Shown piece after piece: positions 4,375-43,088 of a stretch of 64,000 nucleotides of DNA; within the stretch, counting starts at the first letter, position 1; the number at the start of each line of letters is the position of its first letter. The stretch lies in the IMG/VR virus record IMGVR_UViG_3300036940_000262; one strand, written 5' to 3'. This DNA comes from an uncultured virus (IMG/VR IMGVR_UViG_3300036940_000262) (lineage: Duplodnaviria > Heunggongvirae > Uroviricota > Caudoviricetes). The notes under the pieces were generated by a model that worked only from the letters and a program-made list of their open reading frames with translations, was not told the origin of the DNA and made no database searches. A program made the translations under genes and the position numbers.

Positions 4375-4700
4375 AACAAGGGGATATTATTAAGTTTGAC
4401 TTCGATCCTGTTATAGGACATGAGCAAGGCGGTTATCGACCTGCGATAGTTGTTAGCAACTCTTTTATGCATCAAACTACGGGTATTATAGTTGTTTGTC
4501 CAATAACAAATACTGTTAAAGACTATCCTGTAAGAGTAAGGTTAACTGATGAGGATTGTGTAACTGGTGTTGTAATGTGCGACCAAATCAAATCTGTAGA
4601 CTTGAGTGAAAGGAGTTACAGATTAGTTGGTAGAGCAACAACATGGTTAATGGACAGAGTTTTACATATACTTAGCTTGGAATTGAAAAGAGAGGGGTAG
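4368..4700 (+). CDS. mazF: PemK/MazF family endoribonuclease toxin
   Basis: QGDII..DFDP..GHEQ.G.RPAIVVSN...VCPIT...DQIKSVD. Confidence 0.9.
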   Translation: MVKQGDIIKFDFDPVIGHEQGGYRPAIVVSNSFMHQTTGIIVVCPITNTVKDYPVRVRLTDEDCVTGVVMCDQIKSVDLSERSYRLVGRATTWLMDRVLHILSLELKREG

Positions 4701-6110: not shown

Positions 6111-7290
6111 TTTGAGTTTAGATAGTGCAGGATTTAAGATTTGTTTACATCCTAATAAAACACAAGAAAAACTGTTATGGGTGTATTCAAGTCATTCAAG
6201 AGGGTTATATAATCTTTTACTAGCAGAAGCTCAGAGAGCTTACAAAGAGGATAGTATTTCTATTAATTTTAATTATCTTTACAGTTATTATAAACAGTTA
6301 AAAGTTTCTGAGGATTATTCTTGGCTTGCAGAGTTACCTGAAGCCGCAGGAAAGCAGATTTGTAAAGACTTAGTAGAGAACTATAAAAGAGTTTTTAAAT
6401 CTAACTTCGGATTTCCTAAGTTTAAAAAGAAAGGATTGGTTACTCCATCTTTTTATCAAAGAACTGATACACTCTATTTTAAAGGTAACAATAGAGTAGC
6501 CTTAACAGGTGTAGGAGTTGTTAAAGTTACTAAAGGAGATTATTTACCTAAGAAAGAGTTTCAGAGTTTAAAAATATGTAATCCTCGCATTAAGTTTGAT
6601 GGAAAGTACTGGTATTTAAGTTACTCTATTCAATCTCGAAACGAAGAAGGGTTTTCTAAACCTTATACATCCGAAACAAAAGGAATTGGTATTGATTTAG
6701 GTATTAAAGAGTTTATAACAGTCAGTAATGGAACTGTGTTTAGTAATTATAATAAAACAGATAAAGAGTTGATAAGGTTAGATAAGAAGCTTAAAGACTT
6801 ACAGAGAACAAAAGCTTGGAAATTAGAATGTCGTAAGAAGTTTAATCAAAAAGAGATAAGTAATAATATATTAAAACTTAATCAAAAGATTAAACTTGTT
6901 TATAGACGTATTGGAAATATTAAAGATAACTATACTCATTTATACACTTCTACTCTGGTAAAAACCAAGCCTGAGTTTATAGCGGTAGAGAGTTTAGGTA
7001 TTAAAGAAATGAAAGAAGCAACTAATGATGTATCTAAAGAGATTCAAAAAGTAAAATGGTATGAGACTCTAAGACAACTTAATTACAAAAGTAATTATCA
7101 TGAAATACCTTATATTGAGATAGACAGATATTACCCGTCTACTAAGTTATGCAGTGGTTGTGGTAGCATACAAGAAATGTTATTAGAAGAAAGAGTTTAT
7201 AACTGTCCTGTTTGTGGTTTAAGTATTGATAGGGACTTTAATGCTTCTATAAACATAGAAAATAGAGGTAGAGAGCTGTTAACAGCTTAA
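6088..7290 (+). CDS. tnpB: RNA-guided endonuclease TnpB
   Basis: RuvC motifs GIDLG / IAVESL / DRDFNASINI intact; Zn ribbon CSGC...CPVC; GFPKFKKK. Confidence 0.92.
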   Translation: MKKKWGSDLSLDSAGFKICLHPNKTQEKLLWVYSSHSRGLYNLLLAEAQRAYKEDSISINFNYLYSYYKQLKVSEDYSWLAELPEAAGKQICKDLVENYKRVFKSNFGFPKFKKKGLVTPSFYQRTDTLYFKGNNRVALTGVGVVKVTKGDYLPKKEFQSLKICNPRIKFDGKYWYLSYSIQSRNEEGFSKPYTSETKGIGIDLGIKEFITVSNGTVFSNYNKTDKELIRLDKKLKDLQRTKAWKLECRKKFNQKEISNNILKLNQKIKLVYRRIGNIKDNYTHLYTSTLVKTKPEFIAVESLGIKEMKEATNDVSKEIQKVKWYETLRQLNYKSNYHEIPYIEIDRYYPSTKLCSGCGSIQEMLLEERVYNCPVCGLSIDRDFNASINIENRGRELLTA

Positions 7291-7588: not shown

Positions 7589-7625
7589 AAACTAGGTAAT
7601 CTTTTCATCTAGTTTTTGTTATAAT
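7589..7625 (+). promoter_or_regulatory. Element-specific promoter (box-N21-TATAAT)
   Basis: AAACTAGGTA(7589-7598), 21 nt, TATAAT(7620-7625); near-identical to the promoter at 8190. Confidence 0.75.
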
Positions 7626-16200: not shown

Positions 16201-16294
16201 AGATGGATGGTATCTTGAAGAAACATTTGAAACAAAATGGGATTTCGCAGATGCTATATCAGGGGATATGACATTATATGCAAAATGGGGTTAA
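13235..16294 (+). CDS. Large surface protein: N-terminal ChW repeats, FIVAR-like, Ig-like domains, C-terminal InlB B-repeat
   Basis: Signal peptide; three ChW repeats; TQDEVDSAVEAIQDA; P.DATDDSINWS (Big_2); KEGSTLDGWY...WDF...ISGDMTLYAKW. Confidence 0.88.
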   Translation: MSKLRKVGLALTLVLGLFSASVNAQGSTVSSGVYYKTHIQNVGWETALSKDGVTSGTEGRSLRLEGIEIDLGDSLSGHIEYRTHVQNVGWESEWSQDGETAGTQGKGLRLEGIQIRLVNMPGYSIEYRTHVQNEGWETEWSADGETAGTQGKGLRLEGIQIRLVSNRSDLTDYNSLLSKISKLDESLYTDYSITYLDETVSANTVKDTNTQDEVDSAVEAIQDAYSSLEKLSSYKSYSTAGTFGTSTVTTISSGVIVEKGETTLQNLIIRGDLILDSSASGSITLDNVEVTGDILVRGSLTTLNYDSSEDVNLIFQTFSNGSLTVNSSGDGLLNIYYSEEMSGVVTQATSKSVVLSGSFGEVGFDGTLFKISVSDDSYVDWLTLGDDSEGSTISVSEGATVARMTLYSKTAMTGTGVVTLLEANANNITYTKSPKKVTVGSYVTVDPKLEAILVKSITLTSSSSNLYMGSTVTMTASTSPTDATDDSINWSIINGTGSATISSDGVITPTALGSITVRATAGDGSGIKAIKTFIVKEPVGGILTSMTTKLPMGTISPVINITLTGDTFTTEASTVSNWTIDSASGLSIRSIVRNSSTSVTVYTTGTAASGTFTLHANEEAMTSGVESEELNIEIYLQEVSLLTIPGIVAPVTGATPSLAGISTDQYTGTIMWYPTASTFQEGVSYTASVVLTPKSGYTFEGVNANSFVVAGASSVTNTANSGVVTVVFPATSLISTDANILSGTLGGATIGGESFTGASTIATSTSLTVAVPAESRTDAILSLTKSNSASTITYGKNTGVVPDNTIYSVNLSTTGTIASLNSGDVIWVKVVAEDGITTRYYKITVVDIVYDLLTVTQPSGVAIATEQTTVEDALTYLNENYSTVTVTSSPSGVTTLPVIWSFTTVDNWDSEFSSDKDAYNVFRWTAVLGSVTNTNSVNTTGVTTVKSTWVHTYDVAFVTNNDQTIETITVEEGNILGEPEGMVKEGSTLDGWYLEETFETKWDFADAISGDMTLYAKWG

Positions 16295-18321: not shown

Positions 18322-20091
18322 ATGAAGAAAATTAGTAGATTGTTGTTAAGCTTAACGTTTATTCTTTCTATTTTAGCATCATCTGTTTTTGCAATAGAGA
18401 ACAATGCAACAACAGATTCATCTGGAAATACAGAGCAGACACCTTATGCTTATTACAATTCAGACCAGTATATGTGGAAAGCATCGTTGTATGTTGCTAA
18501 AAGCGATACAGTAACAACAGAGTCATCAACAATGAATGACTTTTATAAAGTAGGTGAAAATCCGCTTTATCTATCTCCTGTAGACAGTTGGGGTGGTTGG
18601 ACTTGTGGAGCAAGACCTTCTGATTTATCAGAAGTTAAATTCTCAACATCAAGTAAAGTATCAGTATTACAAGAATTAGCAACTAACGGTGGTGATGCTA
18701 GCACATTGACTCCTGTCAATTTTGTTAATCAGGACACTATTCAGTATATGTATGTACCTGAGATTAATGGAAATAGACTCCCTCCCATCCCAGGGGTAAA
18801 TGATGGCTACTACTATGGTTCTGGTGAACAGCAACAAGGTTTAGTAGGGGACTTTAACGAGGTCAACACATTCTTTACAAGTAATACTTTAATCTATAAT
18901 GTGTTAAGTACATACACCTCTTTGCAAGGAACTACTCCTGAAGCCTATGTGTCAACATTAGAATTAACAATCGATGGCGAAACAAAGACAGGCTGGGATT
19001 CTAATTTAGTACTGCCAATTCAAGACGGCGCAGGGGTACAAGGTAATCATGTACAATGGTTATTAGTATATGAACCTGTATCAATCATCTATGTAGGAAC
19101 AGTAGGGTATGCGGTAACAGCAACAGACGTATCCTTAATGCAGATTAAGCAACAAATGGATTGGTGGTATGATGAAACTGTCTTTACAGATTGGGCTGGT
19201 CAGCAACAGTATTCATGGGCTGATAACAGTTCTAGACAGAATATTGCTAGATTAGCATTTCTTGTATTGGGTAACTCTATTCTAACAGATAAAACATGGT
19301 TTGGTTTAGAAGCTAGTCAAAATATCCCTAGTGGTTCATCAGCTATTCCACAATGTAGATGGAATCCATTAGATCAATTGAAATATGGCGGTTGGGGTAT
19401 GGTTAGATGGTCAAATAACACATCCTCTGTATCGCACACAACTGGTGAATATGCTGTGTCTTATGTATGCTCAAATGGTGCGACAATGGCTACCTCTTAT
19501 TACAATACAGGTGATAAGATAGAAGAACCAACAATGGTAGCAGATGAGGGGTATACATTTGTAGGTTACTACACAGATGATACTTATACTACAGTATTTG
19601 ATTTTGACACTTATGTGGTAGGTAGTGATGTGCAGATTTATGCTAAGTTTGTAAAGAATGACGATGTGAACATTACTATTAACTTTAACTCAAACGGCGG
19701 TTCTAGTGTTGATAGTGTTACTACAACATCGGGAAGTGAGATTGAAGCACCTGTAACCCCTACAAAAGATAACAGTGTATTTACAGGATGGTTCAAAGAT
19801 AGTGCATTAACAGAAGAATTTGATTTTAGAGAGTCTGTGACAGACAGCATTACTTTGTATGCTGGGTGGACTATTAATAAAGCAACTGTAGAGTATATTG
19901 TTGATGGAGCAGTTGTTGCAACTGTAACAGCAGATGGCGGCAGTAAACTGACTTCAAGAACAGCACCTACAAAAGCAGGTGAAATCTTTGTAGGGTGGTT
20001 TACATCAGATGATTACGATGAGATTTGGGATTTTAATAATGATATTGTTGAAAGTGATATGACTCTGTATGCGTATTATGTATCAGAGTAA
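18322..20091 (+). CDS. Secreted protein with three C-terminal InlB B-repeats (Flg_new)
   Basis: Signal peptide; three P.(K/A).GY.F.GW....FDF...V..DITLYA repeats. Confidence 0.85.
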   Translation: MKKISRLLLSLTFILSILASSVFAIENNATTDSSGNTEQTPYAYYNSDQYMWKASLYVAKSDTVTTESSTMNDFYKVGENPLYLSPVDSWGGWTCGARPSDLSEVKFSTSSKVSVLQELATNGGDASTLTPVNFVNQDTIQYMYVPEINGNRLPPIPGVNDGYYYGSGEQQQGLVGDFNEVNTFFTSNTLIYNVLSTYTSLQGTTPEAYVSTLELTIDGETKTGWDSNLVLPIQDGAGVQGNHVQWLLVYEPVSIIYVGTVGYAVTATDVSLMQIKQQMDWWYDETVFTDWAGQQQYSWADNSSRQNIARLAFLVLGNSILTDKTWFGLEASQNIPSGSSAIPQCRWNPLDQLKYGGWGMVRWSNNTSSVSHTTGEYAVSYVCSNGATMATSYYNTGDKIEEPTMVADEGYTFVGYYTDDTYTTVFDFDTYVVGSDVQIYAKFVKNDDVNITINFNSNGGSSVDSVTTTSGSEIEAPVTPTKDNSVFTGWFKDSALTEEFDFRESVTDSITLYAGWTINKATVEYIVDGAVVATVTADGGSKLTSRTAPTKAGEIFVGWFTSDDYDEIWDFNNDIVESDMTLYAYYVSE

Positions 20092-26191: not shown

Positions 26192-27547
26192 ATGGTAATT
26201 AAGAAGTTGATGGTGGGGTGCTTAGTGGCATCGGTGTTGATGAGTGGTAGCAGTGCGGTAATGGCAAGTCCTGCAGAGGTTGAAGTAGACGGTACTGTAG
26301 ATGTACAATTTGACTACTCGCAAGTTCCTTCATCAGTTGGTGGGGATGTACACCTAGAAGTTCCAAGCTCAGGAGTGACCGTAAAAGGTCTTGAAAATGT
26401 ACTTAGTAGCTTAAAGGTACTCAATTATGAAGGAGTAGAACTGTCAGGCTATACTTTATCTTTCTGCAAAGAAGGTGGTAAGGTGACTCACTATACAGTA
26501 GAAGAAGCTGTAGAGTATATTAATAACAAATTAAATTCTGGTTTAGAAACTGCTGTTATTAACTTCTATGCCGGTGGTGGTGACTATGATTCAATCATTT
26601 CTACAGGCACTTTAATAGTCAGCATTAACGATACAGGGGTAATTGATGTACCTGACGAGGGTGCAGACGATTCTCTAGGCGATATATCTGGTGATGTATT
26701 TTATTCTACCCATGTACAAAACGTAGGTTGGCAGGGATTTGTCTCAGACGGCGATATGTCAGGTACAGAGGGTAAGTCTTTAAGACTTGAAGGTATTGTA
26801 CTAGGTACTAATATCGAAGGTTTAGACCTTGAATATGCTACTCATGTTGAGAATATTGGCTGGCAAGAACCTGTAACTTCTGGAATCATGTCAGGAACAG
26901 AAGGAATGGGGTATCGCTTAGAGGCTATCCGTATTAGCTTAACAGGAGAACAAGCAGAAAACTACGATGTTTATTACCGAGTCCACGCTCAGAATGTAGG
27001 CTGGATGGGTTGGGCATCAAACGGTGCTGATTCAGGAACAGCTGGGTACGGTTATCGCTTAGAGGGTATCGAGATTAAAATTGTAGAAAAAGGTGCAACA
27101 GCACCGGGGACAACTGAAAATGCTTTTCAAGATGCTAATTCTGTAGTTGAAACACCTGTAGTTGAAGATGGAAATTATAAAGTAGCAGAAGCAGACTTCT
27201 CCAATGCTACAATTATCTGTGACCGAGACGGTGTTAAAATTGGATTGGTGACTGAAAGAGGCTCTGGAAATGCAGTACAAAGAACAAGAATTGTGTATGA
27301 GAATAATAGTGGTGCAGACTGTAAATTCTTTATCGGCACAAAAGAGGTGTACTGTACTTATTCAATGCCTACAACAGCTTTGATGAAAGCAGGAGAGTCA
27401 GGAATGACTGATACACTGTACAATATCTGTGATTGTACAACTGATGAAACAAGTTCACCAGCTATCGGCGGTATGAATTATGTCTTAGAAGTCAAAGGCG
27501 ACTCTGTAGGATGGGGTCAAGAACGAGGTTTCTACACTGTATATTAA
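26192..27547 (+). CDS. Secreted ChW-repeat protein
   Basis: Signal peptide; three central ChW repeats (YSTHVQNVGWQ...GTEGKSLRLEGI). Confidence 0.88.
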   Translation: MVIKKLMVGCLVASVLMSGSSAVMASPAEVEVDGTVDVQFDYSQVPSSVGGDVHLEVPSSGVTVKGLENVLSSLKVLNYEGVELSGYTLSFCKEGGKVTHYTVEEAVEYINNKLNSGLETAVINFYAGGGDYDSIISTGTLIVSINDTGVIDVPDEGADDSLGDISGDVFYSTHVQNVGWQGFVSDGDMSGTEGKSLRLEGIVLGTNIEGLDLEYATHVENIGWQEPVTSGIMSGTEGMGYRLEAIRISLTGEQAENYDVYYRVHAQNVGWMGWASNGADSGTAGYGYRLEGIEIKIVEKGATAPGTTENAFQDANSVVETPVVEDGNYKVAEADFSNATIICDRDGVKIGLVTERGSGNAVQRTRIVYENNSGADCKFFIGTKEVYCTYSMPTTALMKAGESGMTDTLYNICDCTTDETSSPAIGGMNYVLEVKGDSVGWGQERGFYTVY

Positions 27548-32066: not shown

Positions 32067-32753
32067 ATGGAATTTAATATTCATACAACAAAAGGTAAAC
32101 GAGAAGAAAATCAGGATACGTACTGGTGTGTAAAGCTAAACGTAGAGGGGTATGAGTTGTGTGTAGTTTGCGTATGTGATGGTATGGGTGGTTTAAACGA
32201 AGGTCGTTTAGCAAGTTCATTAGTTGCTAAAGCAGTCAGAGACTACTATACTGGTGGTAATTATGATTTTGAGGGGTTGCAAAGTGTCTTAGAGGATGTC
32301 AATAGAGAGATTTATATTAAGGGACTTAGTGTAGGTGCTATTGGAACTACTTGTACATTATTATCAACTTACAAAGGTCAGTACAAGATATTCCATACAG
32401 GTGACAGCAGATGTTATAAGGTGTCAAATCAAAATGTTGAGATACTGACTGAAGACCACTCAGCTCTTGCAAAATGTAGGCGAGAAGGCAAAGTATTAAC
32501 TCCTGAGAAAGAGAAGAAGTATAGAAATACTTTAACAAGAGCTTTAGGGGTATCTGGTGAGTTTAAAATAGACTACATTGATGGTGAATACAATCAAGAT
32601 GATCTGTTTTTAGTTTGTTCTGACGGTTTTTGGCATTATTTGCAGGATGATGATTTTAAGAGTGGTGAAATAAATAATCTCAAAAATTTAACTGGCAGAT
32701 TTATCGAATTGGGTGAGACAGATAACATAACAAGTATTGTATTGACAGTATAG
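32067..32753 (+). CDS. PP2C/PPM family Ser/Thr phosphatase
   Basis: GKREENQD; VCDGMGG; GTT; GDSRCY; LTEDHS; LTRALG; CSDG; DNIT. Confidence 0.93.
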   Translation: MEFNIHTTKGKREENQDTYWCVKLNVEGYELCVVCVCDGMGGLNEGRLASSLVAKAVRDYYTGGNYDFEGLQSVLEDVNREIYIKGLSVGAIGTTCTLLSTYKGQYKIFHTGDSRCYKVSNQNVEILTEDHSALAKCRREGKVLTPEKEKKYRNTLTRALGVSGEFKIDYIDGEYNQDDLFLVCSDGFWHYLQDDDFKSGEINNLKNLTGRFIELGETDNITSIVLTV

Positions 32754-32765
32754 AGAGGAAATAAG

Positions 32766-33011
32766 ATGAATACAAGAGGGTTTAAAAACGGTGATTTTGT
32801 AAAAGCGAGTGTTGCGTATGGTGGTAGTAAGAATTCAAGAACAGGGGTAGAGAAAAGTGGTATTGTTGAGAAATGTTTTCCATACTTTGCACTTGTTCAG
32901 TTTAACAAGTTTAAACAATGCTTTTTCTATAATGAATTATCAAGAGTAACACAATCGGAGTATAAAAAAAGTCATAATCAAAAGGTAGATTTTGTCTACT
33001 GTACAGATTGA
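32766..33011 (+). CDS. Small beta-barrel protein, weakly Veg-like
   Basis: EKSGIVEKCFPYFALVQF...FFYNEL pattern; resemblance only. Confidence 0.5.
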   Translation: MNTRGFKNGDFVKASVAYGGSKNSRTGVEKSGIVEKCFPYFALVQFNKFKQCFFYNELSRVTQSEYKKSHNQKVDFVYCTD

Positions 33012-33020
33012 GAGGTAGTT

Positions 33021-34148
33021 GTGCGTAGAGTTTTAGTAAAAGGTACAATTGTTTTAGAGAAGTACAAAATTATAGAAGTAGTAAACTCTGGAGGTATGTC
33101 AAACATCTATAAAGTTATTGACAATAAACTTGGTAAAGAGTGGTGCTTAAAGGAAATTATTAAGTCTAGAACTGCTGAAAGTGAATTAGAGTATCGCAGT
33201 TTAATTCAAGAAGCAAACATTATGAGATACTTAGATCATCCTAGCATACCAAGGATTGTCACAATAGAGGATACAGGTTCTTCTATATTTATTATAATGG
33301 ACTTCGTAAAAGGGTTGGATATAAGGAAAACAGTTGAAAAAGATGGTAAATTTTCTTTTGAAAGAACTGTTGATGTTTCTAAGCAAATATGTGATGTTTT
33401 AATTTATTTACATAGTTTAGAAAATCCTATCTTTTACAGAGATATGAAACCTTCTAATGTGGTATTGCAGGAGGATGGTAAGGTAAGGGTATTGGATTTT
33501 GGAATTAGCTTAGTTCTGAGAGGTGGGGATAAAATTGAAGAACCCCTAGGGACAAGAGGGTATGCTCCACCAGAACAAGCTAAAAAAGGCAGTAATTGCG
33601 ACTTAAGGAGTGATATCTATTCATTTGGTATGACAATGTACTATATGTTGACTGGCATAAATCCAAAAACAACAAAAGAAAAACTAAAACCAATAAGTTT
33701 AGCTTCAAACGAGTTTAATAATGACTTAGACAGTATTGTGTATAAGTGTATAGATGTAGATCCAGATAATCGGTATCAAACTGCACATGAACTTAAAGAG
33801 GCTTTATTAAAGTGCAAAAAAGAAGAACCTGAGGCAAGCAAAAAAAGTACTCCTAAAATAGTAGCAACGGTAGTATGTGCTGTAGCAGGGGTTTTAGGGG
33901 TAATACTTTCTTTAAAAACATTATTTGCTTTAATCTTGGCAGTTGGGGGGTTTGTGGCAATACCTTTAATTTGGTTAAAAGGCAAGAAACAAGTAAAATC
34001 TATAAAGAGAGAGAAGTTTGTAAAAAGCAGACCTACCAAAGAAATAGATTTACTTGACTTAATACCAGACAACGTTGTCAAAGAGGTGGAGGACAAGCCA
34101 TTAAAAAATATCTATATTGTTGAAGAATACACTAATCTATTTGATTAA
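33021..34148 (+). CDS. Membrane-anchored Hanks-type Ser/Thr protein kinase
   Basis: GGMS.IY; CLKE; YRDMKPSN; DFG; GTRGYAPPE; SDIYSFG; two C-terminal TM helices. Confidence 0.93.
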   Translation: MRRVLVKGTIVLEKYKIIEVVNSGGMSNIYKVIDNKLGKEWCLKEIIKSRTAESELEYRSLIQEANIMRYLDHPSIPRIVTIEDTGSSIFIIMDFVKGLDIRKTVEKDGKFSFERTVDVSKQICDVLIYLHSLENPIFYRDMKPSNVVLQEDGKVRVLDFGISLVLRGGDKIEEPLGTRGYAPPEQAKKGSNCDLRSDIYSFGMTMYYMLTGINPKTTKEKLKPISLASNEFNNDLDSIVYKCIDVDPDNRYQTAHELKEALLKCKKEEPEASKKSTPKIVATVVCAVAGVLGVILSLKTLFALILAVGGFVAIPLIWLKGKKQVKSIKREKFVKSRPTKEIDLLDLIPDNVVKEVEDKPLKNIYIVEEYTNLFD

Positions 34149-34170
34149 GATAACAGCATTTCAGTAATTC

Positions 34171-34207
34171 AAACTGGGGTGCTGTTTTTTATTATATGTG
34201 GTATAAT
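34171..34207 (+). promoter_or_regulatory. Element-specific promoter, variant box
   Basis: AAACTGGGGT(34171-34180), 21 nt, TATAAT(34202-34207). Confidence 0.65.
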
Positions 34208-34243
34208 AATCATCAGTCAAAAAAGGGAGGAGTGGGTTAAATT

Positions 34244-35227
34244 ATGAGTGAAAAGAAAACACCTGCAGATATTATTATTGAGAGATTTTTAAAGGATGTA
34301 GAAGCAACAGGAACATTGCCTTGGCAGAACCCAGACAAGATGTTTCAAGCTTTTAACTATTTTACTTTACGTCCTTATAGTGGGTTTAATAAGATAATCC
34401 TACCCTCTGGCGAGTATATGACAAAGAAGCAGATAGATGAGTACAACAAAAAGAACGAAACACACTATCTCTTTCAAAAAGGAATCAAGTGGTATACAAT
34501 CAGTTACAAGTCTGAAAAGAAGTATAAAATTTCTTTAAGCGATGTACAAAAACTCTTTCCTAATGTTTCTCAGACAACTTCTGCAGGACGTATTGGGTAT
34601 GAGTATCCATATTCCTATCATAAGTTGCTAGACGGAACATTTGAAAAGCGTAGAAGTATTTTATTGTATTCACAAGTAGCTGAAAGACAGCACTTTAAAA
34701 ATGAGCATGGTGAGATGTTGCCATCTCGGTATGATACAGGAGATATTAGATTTATAACGAGTGATGCGAATACTTTTATTAAAGACTACACCACTAGGGA
34801 AAAGATAAAAGTAAAGAAAAGTGAAGATGGGATTTATGAGTACGATGTTACAATGGATAAGATTGAGACAGCTACTCTTAATCCTAAAAACATTGACGAA
34901 TTTTGTAATATCTTTAGAGAGTTATCTCGTTCGACAGGTCATAGTAAAAGATTAGATAGAGAAGGGGTAACAAACTTAAATTTAGGTTTTGGTTCAGATG
35001 AGTATGCGATAGAGGAGTGTATTGAGGAGATAGCAACATCATTAATGTGTAATGAGTGTGGTTTAACTTCTTTCTCAGAAAGGTATACAGAGCAGTATAA
35101 GAACAGTGTCGAGTACATTAGAATATGGAAAAGCCGGATGCAGAACTGGGGTTCATCATTTATTTACATCGCTTCAAAAGCAGATGAATCTTTTAACAGA
35201 GTGTTAAGTGGTGGTTCAGATGAGTAA
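34244..35227 (+). CDS. ArdC-like ssDNA-binding antirestriction protein with degenerate zincin domain
   Basis: GTLPWQ.P...N..T.RPYSG.N...YMT.KQ (ArdC N); RELSRSTGHSKRLDR...FGSDEYA.EE...E (MPTase-like, HExxH lost). Confidence 0.8.
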   Translation: MSEKKTPADIIIERFLKDVEATGTLPWQNPDKMFQAFNYFTLRPYSGFNKIILPSGEYMTKKQIDEYNKKNETHYLFQKGIKWYTISYKSEKKYKISLSDVQKLFPNVSQTTSAGRIGYEYPYSYHKLLDGTFEKRRSILLYSQVAERQHFKNEHGEMLPSRYDTGDIRFITSDANTFIKDYTTREKIKVKKSEDGIYEYDVTMDKIETATLNPKNIDEFCNIFRELSRSTGHSKRLDREGVTNLNLGFGSDEYAIEECIEEIATSLMCNECGLTSFSERYTEQYKNSVEYIRIWKSRMQNWGSSFIYIASKADESFNRVLSGGSDE

Positions 35228-36875
35228 TGAATACACAATGATGGATAAAGCAACATTAGAAATCTTTGTAAAAGCAATTAATCCTTTAAGAGAGGCTATA
35301 GGCATATATTATAAAGATAACACAACTCAATTAAATAATGCTGTATTTAATTTTTATGAGAATCAGGGGTATATGGTGCTTGAAAACGCTACATCAGGCA
35401 ATTTTTTATTAAAAGTAAATCATCAGGACGAGTCAATGTTAGATTATCTAGGTTTTCAAGGGAGCTTTAAACCTGAGTATCTAAGGGGTAAAGTATTTAC
35501 AACGTTAAAAAAGCTTGTAGATACTTCACCTGTACCTATCAAACAGATTTCTTTTGAGGTCGGGGAGTTAATTAAGAGTGGGGGTATGAGACCTTCTCTT
35601 ATTGAGGCAGGGAGTTTTGAGATAGGGTTATTCAAAAATCCTCAAAAAAGTCGCAAGAGTAGTCCTAAAATTAAAGAAAAAGAGAAAGCGGTATCTGAGG
35701 GCACTTTAGATAAAAAACCTGTTAAAAAGGCTGTGAGAGCCAAAAAAGCGGAGGTTGAAAAAATTGACCGTTATCTGACAATGGTTGATGCAGGGGAGAA
35801 TAATTACAAGTATTACAGTATTAAAGTAAATGGTGATACGTTTGAAGCCACTTGGGGTAGAATGGGTGTAACTGGTAGAGTTATGGCAGGAAACAAAGTC
35901 TATCCAATAAAAGATTATTCAAAGAAGTATAATGAAAAGATAGCGAAGGGGTATAAAGACAGAACTGAAATTCTAACAAGTAGTGGTTCAGACGAGTCTA
36001 CAAGTGCATCAAAAGAAGCAACAATGCTGTATAATTTTCTTCTTAAATACTCAAAAGAGAGAGTTCACAGTACTTTAGTATCAGATAATCTTACTAAAGG
36101 CATGGTAGAACACTCAAGAAAGTTGTTAAATGATTTGTACAACTCCAACGATATACGGTCTTTCAACAATGTATTGTTAGAGTTGATGGCAATCTGTCCT
36201 CGTAAAGTAGATAAGGTAGAATCCCAACTAGCAAAGAGTAGACGAGATATTCCTTTTATTTTTGACAGAGAAGAAGACCTGCAAAAAGCTATGGAAGGGG
36301 TAGTCGGCAACGGTGGAGGAACATTAGATGCAGATGTATTAATGGCAACTGATGAACAAAGAGAGCAGGTACTTGATAAACTTTCTGATAAATTGAAGCC
36401 TAAAGTTGTAGATGTTTACAGGGTTAAACCAAACAGACAGCAAGTCAAGTTTGATAACTATATTAAACAAAGAAATATTACTAAAATCAAGCAGTTGTGG
36501 CATGGTAGTAGAAATGAGAACTGGATTTCTATAATTAGAAACAGTTTAAGTTTAAGTCCCAATGCTCAAATAACAGGTAAGATGTTTGGTAATGGTATTT
36601 ATTTTGCCCCATCAAGTATGAAATCATGGGGGTACACCTCTGGTGATGGTGCTTATTGGACAGGTGGGGGTAGTAAAGATGCTGTAATGGGTTTATATGC
36701 AACAGCTTATGGTGAACCTCACATCACTGAAAGAGCAGGTAAATTTACAGAGGACACTATTTATGGTAAAGATTGTGTTCATGCAAAAGCAGGTTCACAA
36801 CTCAGAAATGATGAGATAATCTATTATAATGAAGCGGCAATGGTGTTGAATTATATTGTAACGTTTAAGTGTTAG
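35220..36875 (+). CDS. WGR-domain poly(ADP-ribose) polymerase (PARP-like ADP-ribosyltransferase)
   Basis: NNYKYY...ATWGRMG...KYNEKIAKGYKD (WGR); helical region; LWHGS, GKMFGNGIYFA, KSWGY, LRNDEIIYY give the H-Y-E triad. Confidence 0.9.
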   Translation: MSNEYTMMDKATLEIFVKAINPLREAIGIYYKDNTTQLNNAVFNFYENQGYMVLENATSGNFLLKVNHQDESMLDYLGFQGSFKPEYLRGKVFTTLKKLVDTSPVPIKQISFEVGELIKSGGMRPSLIEAGSFEIGLFKNPQKSRKSSPKIKEKEKAVSEGTLDKKPVKKAVRAKKAEVEKIDRYLTMVDAGENNYKYYSIKVNGDTFEATWGRMGVTGRVMAGNKVYPIKDYSKKYNEKIAKGYKDRTEILTSSGSDESTSASKEATMLYNFLLKYSKERVHSTLVSDNLTKGMVEHSRKLLNDLYNSNDIRSFNNVLLELMAICPRKVDKVESQLAKSRRDIPFIFDREEDLQKAMEGVVGNGGGTLDADVLMATDEQREQVLDKLSDKLKPKVVDVYRVKPNRQQVKFDNYIKQRNITKIKQLWHGSRNENWISIIRNSLSLSPNAQITGKMFGNGIYFAPSSMKSWGYTSGDGAYWTGGGSKDAVMGLYATAYGEPHITERAGKFTEDTIYGKDCVHAKAGSQLRNDEIIYYNEAAMVLNYIVTFKC

Positions 36876-37036: not shown

Positions 37037-37065
37037 TTAAGATTGTTTTTATTTTAAAAAGTCTT

Positions 37066-37102
37066 GAACTAGGTAAAAAAGGCAGTCTAATTGTAGTATA
37101 AT
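37066..37102 (+). promoter_or_regulatory. Element-specific promoter (box-N21-TATAAT)
   Basis: GAACTAGGTA(37066-37075), 21 nt, TATAAT(37097-37102). Confidence 0.75.
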
Positions 37103-37133
37103 ATTGATAATAAATAAATTAATGGGGGACAGT

Positions 37134-37556
37134 ATGGAACTGTTATATACGGAAAAGCAAGTCAAAGGGGTAGGCGATGTAGTTATTAATGCGATTGGTG
37201 AAAACATCTCTGGAAAACCTTTATCTAATGAAGTTGAGAGTGCTTTAGATAAAAATTGGGAGTTGTCCAGCAATGGCATTAGTCGTCTACTAACAAATGA
37301 GAACATCGTTATGTTGGTAGAGTATGATGAGGAGATGGCTGACAGATACAACACTTCACTAGATTCATTGTACGATAAAATGTGGAAGGGTTTAAAAGAA
37401 CTTGAAGACCATGAGGAGTTTGACGATTTAAAGGTTGTTATCTGTAAAGATGTGGAATTTATGCATCAACATGAGTTGTATGTATTACTTCCTCTAGACT
37501 CAGACAATCAATTTGTAGGTATAGTTGAGGATATTGTATTTGACGCATTTTGTTAA
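37134..37556 (+). CDS. Hypothetical acidic protein
   Basis: GGGGG RBS before ATG at 37134, downstream of promoter. Confidence 0.65.
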   Translation: MELLYTEKQVKGVGDVVINAIGENISGKPLSNEVESALDKNWELSSNGISRLLTNENIVMLVEYDEEMADRYNTSLDSLYDKMWKGLKELEDHEEFDDLKVVICKDVEFMHQHELYVLLPLDSDNQFVGIVEDIVFDAFC

Positions 37557-37565
37557 AATATTTTT

Positions 37566-37602
37566 AAACTTGGTAGAATAAAAATAGAACTTAATGTATA
37601 AT
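37566..37602 (+). promoter_or_regulatory. Element-specific promoter (box-N21-TATAAT) upstream of candidate ncRNA-1
   Basis: AAACTTGGTA(37566-37575), 21 nt, TATAAT(37597-37602). Confidence 0.72.
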
Positions 37603-37609
37603 AGTATCA

Positions 37610-37795
37610 TAAAGTGGTTGAGGCGGCACAGAAATCTGTTTCCACTTTTATACAGCACATTATTAATGTCTTGTAATTACAGATTGGGATATCAGTTGTT
37701 CCTGTAATCACAACTGATACTTCTTCTTTTCTTATTTCATTTACCACCATCAATATTAAGCTTGTGATTGGGTCATATTGATGGTGGGCTTGCAA
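37610..37795 (+). ncRNA. Candidate structured ncRNA-1 (short paralogue)
   Basis: No RBS or ORF after promoter; stems AAAGTGG/CCACTTT, TATCAGTTG/CAACTGATA, CCACCATCAATAT/ATATTGATGGTGG; motifs shared with ncRNA-2. Confidence 0.55.
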
Positions 37796-37835
37796 TCAAC
37801 GATAATGTTTATATAAAATATTTTTAAAGATATCT

Positions 37836-37872
37836 AAACTAGGTATTACAAAAATAAAACATATCGTATAAT
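37836..37872 (+). promoter_or_regulatory. Element-specific promoter (box-N21-TATAAT) upstream of candidate ncRNA-2
   Basis: AAACTAGGTA(37836-37845), 21 nt, TATAAT(37867-37872). Confidence 0.75.
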
Positions 37873-37879
37873 ATTAAAT

Positions 37880-38314
37880 ATAGGGTGGTTGAGCCAATGT
37901 AGATTAGTTTCTGTTCCCACTCTTTAGTAAATAGCGTAATCTTTATTGGGTTATAAAGATTACGCTGAACAAATCCCTACAGAAATATGTAGTGGCTATC
38001 AATTCTAGACAAGGTAGTCAACTGTTTTTGAAAAAAAGGGTTCTCGTAATTACAGAAACATTTTTTGTAAAGGGATGGTTGCGCGAAGGCAATAAACCCT
38101 AGACAGGTTACCGTTAGTATCTGCGGTTGAACTCTGCTGAAGCATTAGAAGTTAGAGATGTAAGAAGATGTTCCGGTACATCAGTAGTGAACTGAGTACT
38201 CCATCGTTAAAGAGAGACACTTGCGAGGTACTGGATTGGTAGCTATCTCTGTAATCATCAACTACCAACTTTATAAGAGACCGCACAGTTAGTATATCCT
38301 GTGCGGTCATTTTT
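37880..38314 (+). ncRNA. Candidate large structured ncRNA-2 (~430 nt)
   Basis: Promoter-to-terminator unit without a credible ORF; many stems, including 14-bp AGCGTAATCTTTAT/ATAAAGATTACGCT, AGGGTT/AACCCT and TTGGTAG/CTACCAA. Confidence 0.65.
38279..38314 (+). terminator. Intrinsic terminator closing ncRNA-2
   Basis: GACCGCACAG-10 nt-CTGTGCGGTC + ATTTTT. Confidence 0.75.
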
Positions 38315-38333
38315 CATCAATAAGAGGTAATAT

Positions 38334-38618
38334 ATGGTAGAGTTAAAAGGAACAACTAAACAAATAGCTTGGGCGGAAACTGTTAGAGAAGAAATTATAG
38401 ACAGGGTTGAAAGACATTTAGAGGTGATGGTAACAGGTGAAAATTTGCTTGAAAGAAATAAACAAGTTTCTTATTTAAGGGATAAAGAACTTCAATCAAT
38501 GAAAATACCTGTAAAGTACTATAAAGAGCTTTTAGATTTTTGCGATGACTTTAACTTCGCTATTAAAGAATCTGTAACTATATTACTTGAAAATAAACTG
38601 GGTTTAATACCTGAATAA
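38334..38618 (+). CDS. Hypothetical protein (phage/plasmid-type N-terminal motif)
   Basis: ELKGTTKQIAWAE.VR motif; GAGGT RBS. Confidence 0.65.
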   Translation: MVELKGTTKQIAWAETVREEIIDRVERHLEVMVTGENLLERNKQVSYLRDKELQSMKIPVKYYKELLDFCDDFNFAIKESVTILLENKLGLIPE

Positions 38619-38631
38619 ATTTTGCTATAAT
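38595..38631 (+). promoter_or_regulatory. Element-specific promoter (box-N21-TATAAT)
   Basis: AAACTGGGTT(38595-38604), 21 nt, TATAAT(38626-38631). Confidence 0.7.
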
Positions 38632-38661
38632 AAAGTAAATAGATGGGGAGGTTGATAGAGT

Positions 38662-38994: not shown

Positions 38995-39348
38995 ATGCTA
39001 ACTAAAGATAAAATATATTATTTTGCCCATCCCTGCACAACAGGAAATTTAACTATTGTTGAGAATCGGGTTATTGAGGAAAGTTTGTATAATCAGGTAT
39101 TAGCTGTTCATGGAATCAAGGTTCTCAGACCTCTGCAATTAATACCAGAAACAATGGGGCATCGAGAAGCAATGGAAAAGTGCTTTAAACTATTAGATGT
39201 GGCTGATTGTGCTATCTTCCCACAAAACTGGGAAACAAGTAAAGGTTGTAGAATGGAGTATGATTGGTGTTTAGCAAATGGTAAAACAATACTATTTATA
39301 AACAGGTACTACGAAGTAGTGAGAGAGTTGGAGGGAAAGATATGGTAA
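38995..39348 (+). CDS. DUF4406 / nucleoside 2-deoxyribosyltransferase-like protein
   Basis: YYFAHP.T; CFKLLDVAD; NWETSKGCRMEY..C...GK. Confidence 0.75.
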   Translation: MLTKDKIYYFAHPCTTGNLTIVENRVIEESLYNQVLAVHGIKVLRPLQLIPETMGHREAMEKCFKLLDVADCAIFPQNWETSKGCRMEYDWCLANGKTILFINRYYEVVRELEGKIW

Positions 39349-39704
39349 ACATGAGTACTTTAAATTTAATCTCAATGTTAAATATGTTTGCAAGAAAACA
39401 AGGACTTGGTGGTGTACCTTTCTCAGACTGTCAAGAAGGGGTAGATTACTCTAAGTTTATTGTATATGACGATAGAGATGGTGTTGCTTATGATGGGGAA
39501 CAAGTGAAGTCACATCCAATAGTGGATAGTTATATTGTAGATAGTGGTAGAAAAGAAGTTCTGTCTAATTATTCAGACAACAATCCAGGGTACATCTTTA
39601 ATTACGATATAGACAAAGTGACTGGCAAACATAGAATAGTTATAGAGTTAATCGAGGAGTGCGGAATCATAATGATTGAAGATGGACAATGGTATGTAGC
39701 ATAA
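39342..39704 (+). CDS. Hypothetical protein
   Basis: ORF overlapping the previous gene. Confidence 0.6.
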   Translation: MVNMSTLNLISMLNMFARKQGLGGVPFSDCQEGVDYSKFIVYDDRDGVAYDGEQVKSHPIVDSYIVDSGRKEVLSNYSDNNPGYIFNYDIDKVTGKHRIVIELIEECGIIMIEDGQWYVA

Positions 39705-39750
39705 TGTAGTAATCAAATGCACTTAGTAAAATCTAGGTGCTTTTTTAGTA

Positions 39751-39787
39751 CAACAAGGTTATATTAAAATGCGACTATTGGTATAAT
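39751..39787 (+). promoter_or_regulatory. Element-specific promoter (box-N21-TATAAT)
   Basis: CAACAAGGTT(39751-39760), 21 nt, TATAAT(39782-39787). Confidence 0.7.
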
Positions 39788-39821
39788 ATATGTATTATCA
39801 GTAAAAAGAGAGGTGGTTTTT

Positions 39822-41144
39822 ATGTACCCTGTAATTAATGTTTGGGTGGATGAAAATAATAAACAAGTTGGTGCAAGATTATTTGTAGATGGCGAACCCA
39901 AGGATTTTACACTAAAGGAGTTACATAAAAACTTTAAAGGAAGTCTGTCTAATGCACTTATTACAGATAAAGGATTAAGGGGTAAGAAAGGTGTTCATTT
40001 AAAAAGACGATTATCTGAGCGAAATACGGATAAAGGTAAACCTTTACTTTACACATTAATGCACAAAGATACGGTTGTATTTGAAGTATATCAAGAGTGC
40101 GTAACTATTAAAGATAGTAGTAAAATACCTTTTGAATTGAGAAATATCTTATTAAAGAAAACAGATACAATGGGTGAAATATACAAGGTAGTCTCATTTT
40201 ATAGGTGGTTAGAAGATAGAGTAAACCACCTATCAAGAGAGTATATGAATAAAGTTTATATTAAAAGAAAAGTCGGTAGAGACAGGGAGAGAATATTAAA
40301 AGATAGTTGTGCAGTATCGGTAACAGACAATTTTTGGGTACTTCGGTCAGATTTAAAAACTTCTTGGAGTGAGTTGAGAGAGGTTTTAGATACAAGTTTA
40401 TCTTTAGTAAACACAGCATTAACAGGAGACATAGAGTATAAAGGTTTTGATAAAACTGAAAAGGATACAACTTCAATTTTCTCTATAAAAGGATTTTTTC
40501 CAAAGGCTATCCATAAAGGGGTATTACTAAAACAAGGATATACCGCTGAGTACGAGGTTTTAGGTATGGAGGTGGCCAGCTACCTAAACATACCGGTTGC
40601 GCAGTCATATTACAAAGAGAACGGTGTTGTGGCTAGTAAATTGTTCACATCATCTGAAAAGTCATTAGTCCATGCAAAAGAATTATTAACATACTTGGGG
40701 TACACAAGACCTGATGAAAGTATTTCTAACGATGATGAGGTACATGAAATAGTTTATAATTATTTCAAATCTATTAGAAGGACAGATATAACTAGAGATT
40801 TAGAAAGACTGTATTTACTGACCTATATAATTGGAAATGAGGATTTGCACGAGGAAAATTTTGGGTTTTTATACAGTAACACGAGATTTGAAAATGGTAC
40901 TTTTAAGATATTAGAGGTATCCCCAGCCTATGATTTTAATAATGCTTTTTCTATTTCAACAACTTATAGCCCTTATAAGTGGATAGCAGAAAATGCAAAT
41001 TATTTTTTGTCAAATAACAAAGATATAGAGGAGAGATTAAGTTCAAGTAAATTTAAAAAACTTGTAGAGAACTTAAAACATCTTAATGACAAAGAAAAGA
41101 AAGCGATTTTAATTAGAGTAAGTAAACTCTTGAAGGAGGTTTAA
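39822..41144 (+). CDS. HipA-like kinase
   Basis: SVTDNFW; KG.FPK; EYEV; IIGNEDLHEENFG (catalytic loop); SPAYDFN. Confidence 0.82.
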   Translation: MYPVINVWVDENNKQVGARLFVDGEPKDFTLKELHKNFKGSLSNALITDKGLRGKKGVHLKRRLSERNTDKGKPLLYTLMHKDTVVFEVYQECVTIKDSSKIPFELRNILLKKTDTMGEIYKVVSFYRWLEDRVNHLSREYMNKVYIKRKVGRDRERILKDSCAVSVTDNFWVLRSDLKTSWSELREVLDTSLSLVNTALTGDIEYKGFDKTEKDTTSIFSIKGFFPKAIHKGVLLKQGYTAEYEVLGMEVASYLNIPVAQSYYKENGVVASKLFTSSEKSLVHAKELLTYLGYTRPDESISNDDEVHEIVYNYFKSIRRTDITRDLERLYLLTYIIGNEDLHEENFGFLYSNTRFENGTFKILEVSPAYDFNNAFSISTTYSPYKWIAENANYFLSNNKDIEERLSSSKFKKLVENLKHLNDKEKKAILIRVSKLLKEV

Positions 41145-41146
41145 AA

Positions 41147-41746
41147 ATGAGATATTTTATAAGTGATTTGCACTTCAATCATGAAGTGGCCTTAATAAAC
41201 TATAAAAGACCATTCAGCTCAGTAGAGGAGATGAATGAGTCAATAATAGATAACTGGAATAATGCAGTAGGAAACAAAGATACAGTATATCTTTTGGGTG
41301 ATGTAGCCTTTGGTAGTGGAAAAACTATTTCTGATTTAGTGTCAAGACTAAACGGCAGAAAACACCTAATAGCAGGTAATTGGGACAGTAAATTTTTATT
41401 TAGCAGAGGGTTTGACAATCGAGTATTCAAATCAATAACCTCTTACAACACGAGAAGTCATACAATAGAGGGGTACGAAGGAAGATTGATTTTAAGTCAC
41501 TACCCTTTTGCCGATTGGGATTCTTCACATAAAGGTACAATCCATCTTCATGGACATATTCATAACAGAGTCCCTAGTTTTCAGTTATTGGGAGATGCTT
41601 CTAAACGATTTATGTTCAATGTATCTTTAGAGGTAATGGATTATAGACCACAAACCTTAGAAGAGATTATGAATGGACGACTTGAGGAGTGGGTAGACTT
41701 TATAAAGTCTGGTAAGAGATTAAACGGTTTAGAGGGTTTAATATAA
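41147..41746 (+). CDS. Calcineurin-like metallophosphoesterase
   Basis: SDLHFNH; LLGD; AGNWD; LSHYP; HLHGHIH; FNVS. Confidence 0.9.
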   Translation: MRYFISDLHFNHEVALINYKRPFSSVEEMNESIIDNWNNAVGNKDTVYLLGDVAFGSGKTISDLVSRLNGRKHLIAGNWDSKFLFSRGFDNRVFKSITSYNTRSHTIEGYEGRLILSHYPFADWDSSHKGTIHLHGHIHNRVPSFQLLGDASKRFMFNVSLEVMDYRPQTLEEIMNGRLEEWVDFIKSGKRLNGLEGLI

Positions 41747-41756
41747 GGAGGTTAAA

Positions 41757-42557
41757 ATTAAAGTAGAAAGAGAACTTGTACGTGGAGATGTGATTGTCTG
41801 TAAAGGAACTCGTGCTGTCATTGCAGAAGTATTGGCTCAAGATGCATATGAGGGGTACGAGGGACGAGAGGGATATTATGATATTGAGATTAAAGACACA
41901 AGGGGCAAATATCGTCATTGGAAGTCCGACTCAGATGGCGGTCATGTAGAATTGCTTGGTGGGATGAAAGAGTTTGGCATTTTAGTAGATTGTTTTAGCG
42001 GTAAAACAATGAACTACATGAGAGAGTGTGTAAAGGTACTTAAAAGTCATAACTACAATCCTGATAAAGTTTTAACTTCTCTACACATGAAAGTGATTGA
42101 CTATAAACCTGGGTGGCATTTAGAGTACTCATTTAAGGATTTGGGTGTCATGTCAAACAAAAATGATGGAACAGATACTTCTTATAAAAATCTAGTATCT
42201 TCTATTAGAGAGGACTTCGGTGAGTTCGAGCGGTTGGTATTCCCTTGCAGTATAGGAGAGGGGTATGTGTTTGATAACAAGTTGGTAGCATATAAGCACA
42301 ACTCTTATTTACAAGATTATTATGAATTATTAGAGAGTACAGTAGAGATGTACTATAACGGTTCACCTTTGGACGAATCTCAATTATCAAACATGATGTT
42401 AAGGGATGAGGTGTATTTGAGTAAAGGTAGTCATGAAAAGATTATTGCTTCACTCAATAAGTTTAAAGGCGGAACTTGGAAATATGATGGTGATGGAACA
42501 CCTGACGATATTGTATACACAGACGGAACTAACTTCTTTGTAGTATACATAAGATAA
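41757..42557 (+). CDS. Hypothetical protein (possible ATT start; ORF track uses GTG at 41790)
   Basis: AAGGAGG RBS at 41745-41751 precedes in-frame ATT at 41757. Confidence 0.6.
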   Translation: MKVERELVRGDVIVCKGTRAVIAEVLAQDAYEGYEGREGYYDIEIKDTRGKYRHWKSDSDGGHVELLGGMKEFGILVDCFSGKTMNYMRECVKVLKSHNYNPDKVLTSLHMKVIDYKPGWHLEYSFKDLGVMSNKNDGTDTSYKNLVSSIREDFGEFERLVFPCSIGEGYVFDNKLVAYKHNSYLQDYYELLESTVEMYYNGSPLDESQLSNMMLRDEVYLSKGSHEKIIASLNKFKGGTWKYDGDGTPDDIVYTDGTNFFVVYIR

Positions 42558-42575: not shown

Positions 42576-43088
42576 ATGACATTAGCTGACAGAATCCAAT
42601 TAGCAATGAAAAAAAGAAAGCTTAAACAGGTAGATTTAGTAAACTTGACAGGTATACCACAGAGTACATTAAGTCTCTACATAAGAGAAGGTCACATACC
42701 TAAGAAAGAGGTACTTCAAACGATTGCGGATGCACTAGACGTATCAGTATTCTGGCTAAAGGGGTATGATGAGTATGAGAAAATTCCAGAGACAACTGAA
42801 AAAATAAGTGCTGTATTGATAGGTAAATTAATAGAATCTCATTATGAGAAAAATGAACAGAAGTTTAAAGACTATGCGGAGTTCATTCATAGCAAGTATA
42901 CTGAAACTAGAGACGATAGGTCAGCTAAGATAATCAGAAACAAGATAGACGGGGTAATTGGGACGCAAGTTGTTCTTGATGAGGTTTCTGAGTTGGAGGA
43001 GTTGGTCGTAATAGATAAACGAGGGCAGTCAGACTTAGTTGAGATTAAAAACATTCTCAGGGAAATCGCAAAGAAACTGGAAGTTTAA
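42576..43088 (+). CDS. XRE-family HTH transcriptional regulator
   Basis: RI...MKKRKLKQVDL..LTGIPQSTLSLY..G..PK...IADALDVS..WL.G. Confidence 0.85.
   Translation: MTLADRIQLAMKKRKLKQVDLVNLTGIPQSTLSLYIREGHIPKKEVLQTIADALDVSVFWLKGYDEYEKIPETTEKISAVLIGKLIESHYEKNEQKFKDYAEFIHSKYTETRDDRSAKIIRNKIDGVIGTQVVLDEVSELEELVVIDKRGQSDLVEIKNILREIAKKLEV

Follow-up and report, generated by a model that had tools for sequence, protein, structure and literature searches.

Adjacent small RNAs (sRNAs) that lie in the same orientation, with similar promoters of their own, conserved ends, and a divergent middle, are exemplified by the pairs OmrA/OmrB and PrrF1/PrrF2, the members of which are 80-150 nucleotides (nt) long, alike in size, terminator-ended, and act by base pairing, together with Hfq. 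GlmY and GlmZ are homologous RNAs with a common structured module that lie far apart in the genome. Here we describe a pair of predicted non-coding RNAs in a 64,000-nt stretch of DNA from an uncultured virus of the Caudoviricetes (IMG/VR record IMGVR_UViG_3300036940_000262; the whole stretch is referred to below as the window), a short one (tentatively referred to as S) and a long one (L, termed ncRNA-2 in the preliminary description of this DNA). As in the tandem sRNA pairs, S and L are adjacent, have the same orientation, and have homologous promoters and transcribed parts, and S may read into L. They differ from these pairs in that S is about 190 nt and L about 430 nt long, S has no terminator, and the search for a target of a pyrimidine-rich linker in S was negative; the G+C-rich stem directly followed by a U-tract that marks a terminator-ended sRNA is present in L and absent from S. 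As in GlmY/GlmZ, S lacks the rest of the longer RNA and could, by analogy, compete for the partner of the common module, although S and L have no sequence or family relation to GlmY/GlmZ and we infer mimicry here from the analogy. S and L are a new, unclassified pair of structured non-coding RNAs of a mobile element, known from this one element, and probably represent a real and functional orphan pair of RNA paralogues.

ROOL, GOLLD, and OLE are abundant, long non-coding RNAs that are highly structured, often occur on phages or megaplasmids, and have no known function. These ornate RNAs are described as forming homo-oligomers (PMC12286853), and a palindromic 15-mer present in both S and L could, by analogy, likewise join two molecules. 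In contrast to these families, L is shorter (430 nt), and neither L nor S has an Rfam match. Abundant long non-coding RNAs of unknown function have also been reported from transcriptomes of phage K (PMC9241854), but these have no sequence relation to S or L, and a blastn search of 37400-38400 against 50,697 phage records gave no match.

The two RNAs lie in the longest gap in the window that is free of open reading frames (ORFs; at least 80 amino acids [aa], either strand), a 777-nt interval from 37557 to 38333 that contains the two units at 37610-37800 (S) and 37880-38310 (L). The RNAs and the promoters of their type around them are the following:

37053..37106, + strand: third copy of the promoter, ahead of an upstream protein gene (61% repeat match)
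37553..37606, + strand: promoter of S, with the box AACTTGGTA at 37567-37575, a 21-nt spacer, and the -10 element TATAAT at 37597-37602
37610..37800, + strand: predicted short RNA S, its start placed about 7 nt past the -10 element, with no U-tract terminator
37823..37876, + strand: promoter of L, with the box AACTAGGTA at 37837-37845, a 21-nt spacer, and the -10 element TATAAT at 37867-37872
37880..38314, + strand: long RNA L, about 430 nt, with an intrinsic terminator at its end

Both promoters belong to a type (AACTNGGTA-N21-TATAAT, i.e., AAC[TA]NGGT[AT]-N21-TATAAT) that has 15 matches on the + strand of the window, as compared with a mean of 1.9 in shuffled sequences. Eleven of the 15 matches sit 2-47 nt ahead of a + strand ORF and two are poor and intragenic; only those of S and L are good matches without an ORF behind them. 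The regulon promoter that the preliminary description had placed ahead of S is therefore confirmed, the S copy having the exact box, spacing, and -10 element. The L promoter is 76% identical to it (alignment z = 8.5, with 0/500 shuffles scoring as high), an A/T-rich stretch (AAAATATTTTTAAA) lies upstream at 37555-37568 in the S promoter, and the third copy is found about 500 nt upstream of S. This promoter of the element's own type is the best available argument, an indirect one, suggesting that S is transcribed. Sites of the type were found at 1678, 7590, 8191, 21474, 23975, 34172, 37067, 37567, 37837, 38596, 39752, 43434, and 47942. The distance of exactly 21 nt from the box to TATAAT is too great for a normal -35 hexamer, and at 7590 and 8191 the box is an arm of a perfect inverted repeat (AACTAGGTA...TACCTAGTT); the box may be the site of a regulator or of an unusual sigma factor.

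Downstream of their promoters, S and L have four motifs in the same order, exactly as first described, which are carried by the following features:

37611..37648, + strand: hairpin P1 of S, with outer stem AAAGUGG/CCACUUU, internal loop UUGAG, and apical stem ACAGA/UCUGU; it contains motifs 1 and 2
37882..37923, + strand: hairpin P1 of L, AGGGUGG/CCACUCU, the homologue of S P1
37669..37683, + strand: motif 3 of S, the near-palindromic 15-mer TCTTGTAATTACAGA, 93% identical to 38042-38056
38042..38056, + strand: motif 3 of L, TCTCGTAATTACAGA, which forms a predicted duplex of -8.7 kcal/mol with the L loop motif
37690..37719, + strand: 3' hairpin of S, a 10-bp stem (UAUCAGUUGU/ACAACUGAUA) with CUGUAAUC in the loop (pair probability 0.98); motif 4 lies within this loop at 37702-37710
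38237..38267, + strand: 3' hairpin of L, UUGGUAG/CUACCAA with CUGUAAUCAUCAA in the loop, which competes with the helix 37884-37892/38258-38266

Motif 1 (GTGGTTGAG, at 37614 and 37885) and motif 2 (TCTGTTTCCACT at 37635 and TCTGTTCCCACT at 37910) are the sole exact matches in the window. Motif 3 (GTAATTACAGA, at 37673 and 38046) has one more exact match, at 47728 on the - strand and within a gene, and motif 4 (CTGTAATCA, at 37702 and 38249) has one more match at 59130. A small hairpin at 37651-37675 uses the first bases of the S 15-mer as its 3' arm. Between S and L, the best chain of collinear exact matches (at least 8 nt each) has a score of 37, which was reached by none of 300 dinucleotide shuffles and by none of 2512 natural tiles (191-nt pieces of the window, both strands), and the concern raised with the preliminary description, that the motifs might not stand out against shuffled A/T-rich controls, is thereby answered. 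Outside the four islands S and L cannot be aligned: a plain local alignment detects only the 15-mer TCTYGTAATTACAGA (z = 2.8, equalled by 9/500 shuffles), and the spacers between the islands differ (27 vs. 124 nt and 18 vs. 192 nt in S and L respectively), which fits an old divergence with constraint on the islands. Further copies, which the preliminary description had proposed to look for in the replicon, did not turn up, as there is no third S/L unit within the window.

The similarity extends to the predicted structures. Both RNAs fold better than shuffled sequences, with z = -3.81 for S (1/200 shuffles folding equally well) and z = -4.52 for L (0/100). When P1 is aligned on the 5' ends, 12/12 consensus pairs are kept in S and L, with one compensatory and three one-sided changes; its stem (AAAGTGG/CCACTTT in S vs. 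AGGGTGG/CCACTCT in L) contains one double change from A-U to G-C and one change from A-U to G.U. When the 3' hairpins are aligned on the loop (CUGUAAUCA.CAAC), 6/6 stem pairs are kept, three of them by compensatory changes, and thus the two earlier observations, a compensatory change in the 5' stem and 3' stems that differ while displaying the same loop, were both reproduced, with pairing kept through four double changes in all. Only 1.16% of the 9-mer positions in the window are wholly contained in loops of perfect hairpins of at least 7 bp, and both copies of CTGTAATCA are among them. Identical islands, unequal spacers, and re-paired stems together point to selection at the RNA level and not to a fading duplicate.

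The preliminary description had inferred selection on RNA structure in general, including a pseudoknot in which ATTACAG pairs with CTGTAAT. For both hairpins this stands, in that pairs are kept through changes, whereas for the pseudoknot it is unproven: the complementarity is present in both copies (11/12 positions and a duplex energy of -10.4 kcal/mol in S; 8/8 positions and -8.7 kcal/mol in L), but the arms are identical in S and L and show no covariation.

The 3' parts of the two RNAs are dissimilar, and contain the following features:

37720..37743, + strand: pyrimidine-rich linker of S, CUUCUUCUUUUCUUAUUUCAUUUA, unpaired in the predicted folds
37744..37787, + strand: 13-bp hairpin of S, with a perfect stem and an 18-nt loop, followed by GCUUGCAAU (P = 0.99)
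37788..37800, + strand: second, imperfect motif-4-like copy in S, GCUUGCAAUCAAC, which can pair with the 5' motif GUGGUUGAGGC and thereby close S
38279..38314, + strand: terminator of L, with a 10-bp stem (GACCGCACAG/CUGUGCGGUC), a 10-nt loop, and AUUUUU (P = 1.00)

The 13-bp hairpin noted earlier is accurate, the inverted repeat (37744-37756 and 37775-37787) being 100% complementary over 13 bp; it has no U-tract, is not a canonical intrinsic terminator, and was not listed by the terminator scan. As proposed in the preliminary description, S might represent the minimal core or a scaffold with another payload, but it may also just continue into L. The pyrimidine-rich linker was rejected as an anti-ribosome-binding-site seed, as its mean duplex energy was -11.1 kcal/mol vs. 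-11.3 kcal/mol for shuffled linkers, and its best ribosome-binding-site target (at 20209) was equalled by 2/30 shuffled linkers. The 13-bp hairpin of S (37767-37782) and a 14-bp hairpin of L (37945-37960) both contain AUUGGGUYAUA at the junction of loop and 3' arm (81% over 16 nt), but not in the same order along S and L, and this match may be due to chance.

Several observations weigh against the reading of S and L as functional paralogues that share a structured core. The 3' part of the chain (the 11-mer and the 9-mer) is by itself only moderately rarer than chance, being reached by 9 of the 2512 tiles at k = 9 and by 48 at k = 8 (and by 913 at k = 7), and the pseudoknot rests on complementarity between arms that do not covary. 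Further, GTAATTAC equals its own reverse complement, the 15-mer is a palindrome apart from one extra base, and its left half recurs in the loop motif; judged by sequence, such a near-palindrome with a half-site would fit a DNA operator, RNA dimerisation, or a repeated protein-binding motif equally well. In the minimum-energy folds of both S and L, the 5' motif GUGGUUGAG is paired to the 3' end in a closing helix, which consists of UGGUUG/CAAUCA (37615-37620/37793-37798) and AGGC/GCUU (37621-37624/37788-37791) in S, at P = 0.92-0.94, and of GGUGGUUGA/UCAACUACC (37884-37892/38258-38266) in L, at P = 0.99. P1 cannot form together with this helix, and in L neither can the 3' hairpin. Without the pseudoknot duplexes, the fold proposed in the preliminary description is less stable than the minimum by 6.6 (S) and 7.5 kcal/mol (L); once these duplexes are added, the two folds would be about level in modelled energy, such that a switch between them is possible. 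Lastly, no orthologue of S or L was found in the collections searched (see below), and the comparison is between two paralogues of one element. Taking these points together with the evidence for constraint, we consider the chances to be about even that S is a genuine, selected, and functional short paralogue that shares a recognition core with the ~430-nt L.

Instead of being an RNA in its own right, S may be the 5' part of a ~700-nt transcript that extends from the S promoter to the L terminator, passing over the 13-bp hairpin and the L promoter on the way, in which case the duplicated motifs would act within one 700-nt molecule. An analogue of such read-through from S into L is PrrH, the read-through RNA of PrrF1-PrrF2. 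The 13-bp hairpin, with GCUUGCAAU and not a U-tract behind it, is in keeping with this, and so are the location of the only strong terminator at 38279-38314 and the 87% complementarity over 15 nt between the loop region of S (37697-37711) and the motif 3 region of L (38046-38060). However, S can close on itself through its own 5' and 3' ends, a full L promoter lies only 20-80 nt behind S, and the joint transcript was not seen in the public sequencing runs, which we examined as assembled contigs. We regard this as unlikely, while it survives the evidence better than the other alternatives.

The motifs downstream of the promoters could also be DNA sites, with TCTYGTAATTACAGA as an operator and CTGTAAT as an extra half-site for a dimeric regulator, e.g., the helix-turn-helix protein encoded at 42576-43088; S would then be a duplicated promoter region with regulatory DNA. 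The palindromic nature of GTAATTAC and of the 15-mer and the half-site in the loop motif are what this predicts, and the perfect inverted repeats that include the promoter box at 7590 and 8191 indicate that operator-like palindromes are used in the element. On the other hand, the sites lie at very different distances from the predicted starts (about +63 and about +166), GTAATTACAGA occurs just once more in 64 kb, within a gene, and DNA binding gives no account of why the half-site is in a hairpin loop in both copies, on stems that differ in 3/6 pairs and still pair. This explanation appears rather improbable to us.

A decaying, functionless duplicate is another candidate, in which S arose by partial tandem duplication of the promoter and 5' end of L and the similarity is a residue. 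S and L are indeed adjacent and in the same orientation, with starts 270 nt apart, their similarity peaks at the promoter and the first 40 nt, and there is nothing to which this orphan element could be compared. Neutral decay, however, would blur the sequence evenly, whereas here perfect 9- to 15-mers stand amid unalignable sequence, the S promoter keeps a perfect -10 element, box, and spacing, and both hairpins keep pairing through the four double changes, so that we give this origin little credence.

Finally, S and L may be compared with cis-acting leaders, i.e., the zipper-type attenuator of pLS20 or the antitermination RNAs of the conAn2 or HK022 put type. In the pLS20 family, a strong promoter is followed by a long structured leader and an intrinsic terminator directly before the first gene, the pLS20 leader itself being given as 456 nt (PMC13401043), close to the length of L. 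The conAn2 RNA is characterised by a short GC-rich block and the stem-loop SL1, and acts in antitermination. The conAn system is described as requiring the protein ConAn1 with the Pfam domain PF17362 (pXO2-34), and conAn2 regions as being 260-600 bp long and only 30-40% identical to one another (PMC8191782). L resembles pLS20 cATT and conAn in having a promoter, a structured leader, a terminator, and behind it a long array of genes all in one direction, and the first of these genes has no promoter of the element type:

38334..38618, + strand: orphan 94-aa gene, with its start 24 nt past the terminator stem of L and no promoter of the element type

The distance from terminator to ribosome-binding site is within the 0-26 bp of pLS20 cATT, with the L terminator ending at 38314, AAGAGG at about 38321, and ATG at 38334; S has no such arrangement. 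Against a leader function, the antiterminator fold of a zipper-type attenuator, in which a stem-loop further upstream is complementary to the terminator, is not predicted here, as the 5' arm of the terminator (38282-38287) is more than 90% unpaired in the 37880-38292 fold, before the 3' arm is made, and the best upstream duplex reaches only -12.6 kcal/mol. PF17362 is absent from 18 neighboring proteins (E up to 0.01) and from four small flanking proteins (E up to 10), and no conjugation genes were found in the Pfam matches of the 72 window proteins scanned. With the next gene having its own promoter at 38596, and with S having neither a terminator nor a gene behind it, a leader role for S and L is very improbable.

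A small protein-coding gene was rejected, as the distance from motif 1 to motif 2 is 12 nt in S and 16 nt in L, and this 4-nt difference leaves no common reading frame. The ORFs in the S/L region are only 20-62 aa long; the 37-aa ORF on the + strand begins inside the -10 box, and the - strand ORF of 62 aa lacks a ribosome-binding site and matched only itself in the protein search. With genetic code tables 11 and 4, and with TAG read as Q, there is no long + strand frame in the region. A replication origin was rejected as well, as there is no skew turn.

Neither RNA could be assigned to a known family. A search of the whole window against the Rfam 15 families (which include ROOL, GOLLD, OLE, 6S, Y RNA-like, T-box, tmRNA, and RNase P) gave 0 matches at the gathering threshold; at E up to 10, the region 37400-38450 gave four matches of 16.6-20.5 bits, as compared with thresholds of 44-70, and each had an E above 1. 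Neither a tRNA nor a tmRNA was detected, and we found no described match for S/L in the literature on structured or large non-coding RNAs of phages. Searches for relatives were similarly negative. In the viral contig collection, two sequence patterns gave four and two loci, all in coding or unrelated sequence, and the flanking proteins gave a 30-residue motif match in a high-GC phage, one weaker match, or nothing. The pattern search of genome contigs gave at least 120 loci, and none of the 122 matches listed convincingly had the other motifs; the search of metagenome contigs gave one locus, inside a transporter gene; and tblastn of two flanking proteins against plasmids gave no match. Of 401 genomes belonging to the same order as a Butyrivibrio assembly, 14 had a match, almost always to the A/T-rich stretch of the promoter (12/14 best matches and 14/16 listed places); the body of S accounted for two weak matches, 27-50 nt long (E about 7e-4). 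Five Clostridia assemblies had no match.

In the public runs, a gut metatranscriptome (RNA library X12) has two contigs over 37903-38274 (95-99% identity) and none on S or the flanking genes (1.6 kb compared), where absence of cover is no evidence. This fits L being an abundant discrete RNA; carried-over DNA in the library would also account for it. Five of the six substitutions in these contigs fall at predicted paired positions of L, and four of the five (38000 C>U, 38123 G>A, 38124 C>U, and 38134 C>U) leave the pair intact, while one, 37958 G>U in the 14-bp hairpin, breaks it. Two of the changes in this variant lie in an internal hairpin of L at 38110-38127, the pairs of which are kept; the same hairpin and the terminator (38285-38302) have a common loop sequence, UUAGUAU. 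The DNA run X4 contains a 201-nt contig at exactly 37607-37807, which we take as a low-depth fragment.

In a search of 5.8 billion proteins, the product of the 94-aa gene had no match other than itself, on contigs as long as 181,661 bp, and it has no Pfam family match. With no promoter of its own, this gene would be expressed only by read-through of L; the next promoter of the element type lies behind L at 38596. A contig from the DNA run X3 matches 38411-38481 and 38479-38655, with about 650 extra letters between the two parts and 24 differences, and therefore represents a variant of the element in which the 94-aa gene carries an insertion or replacement.

The window is A/T-rich (35.6% G+C), its ORFs are almost all on the + strand, and its DNA has no blastn match among phage and plasmid records. 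The gene behind L matches only itself, and we therefore conclude that the element is a large orphan replicon, phage-like or plasmid-like, with a low-GC Gram-positive host. Among its genes are three toxin-antitoxin pairs, an IS607-type recombinase with TnpB, ZnuABC (best identity of ZnuA 41% among 301 genomes searched), two Dam-type methylases, surface proteins with ChW repeats, a type typical of Clostridia, and a clamp loader whose nearest protein-atlas clusters are viral. The toxin-antitoxin modules (Phd/YoeB-like, HicB-like, and MazE/MazF) lie within 722-1621 and 4129-4700, and the surface proteins with ChW and Listeria-Bacteroides repeats at 1745-3196, 13235-16294, 18322-20091, and 26192-27547; together these are an odd cargo for a phage. 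The IS607-type serine recombinase is followed by TnpB (with a Cas12f-like TNB domain) at 5427-7290, and about 370 nt of non-coding DNA lie 3' of TnpB, the place expected for a guide (omega) RNA. The S/L locus itself is flanked by genes of the host-takeover or anti-defence type (32067-36875 and 38995-42557), which encode a PP2C phosphatase, a Ser/Thr kinase, an ArdC-like zincin, a PARP catalytic domain with WGR, a DUF4406 deoxyribosyltransferase-like protein, a HipA-like kinase, and a phosphoesterase. The closest relative of the PARP is on the Butyrivibrio plasmid pCY360, without synteny. Public runs that contain the element come from subsurface, oil-field, wastewater, and bioreactor samples.

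Based on the reading of S and L as paralogues with a shared core, we propose that both would be transcribed, with predicted starts near AUA at 37609-37611 and 37878-37880, and that P1, at the 5' end, would fold first. The conserved linker UCUYGUAAUUACAGA would then dock with the loop CUGUAAUCA through 7-8 bp, with four more in S, to give a compact core that would be nearly bare in S and to which L would add about 310 nt of domains. Such a core would most likely serve in the recognition of a single partner common to both RNAs, which may be a protein encoded by the element or by its host, or else the other RNA of the pair, reached via the palindromic 15-mer, and S may be a short mimic or competitor of L, or an upstream module. 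Many transcripts from the S promoter would probably run into L and end at the L terminator, because S has no U-tract terminator. A bolder version, which we put forward as highly speculative, is that S and L are a mimic-and-effector or hetero-oligomer pair that represents a new class of phage RNA within a host-takeover island, next to genes for a kinase, a phosphatase, an ArdC-like protein, a PARP-like ADP-ribosyltransferase, and a HipA-like kinase, where the core (the 5' hairpin and the pseudoknot of the palindromic 15-mer) binds a partner or joins RNAs, and S is a minimal version that tunes or caps L.

The value of the pair is limited for now, as it comes from a single element and the transcription of S is predicted. 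If real, it is a candidate new family of structured RNAs from a large, uncharted phage-like element. S can be viewed as a natural deletion experiment that marks the conserved core of the 430-nt L, and it is this core that is to be probed, mutated, or used as bait. More generally, internal paralogues such as these can supply covariation evidence where orthologues are lacking.

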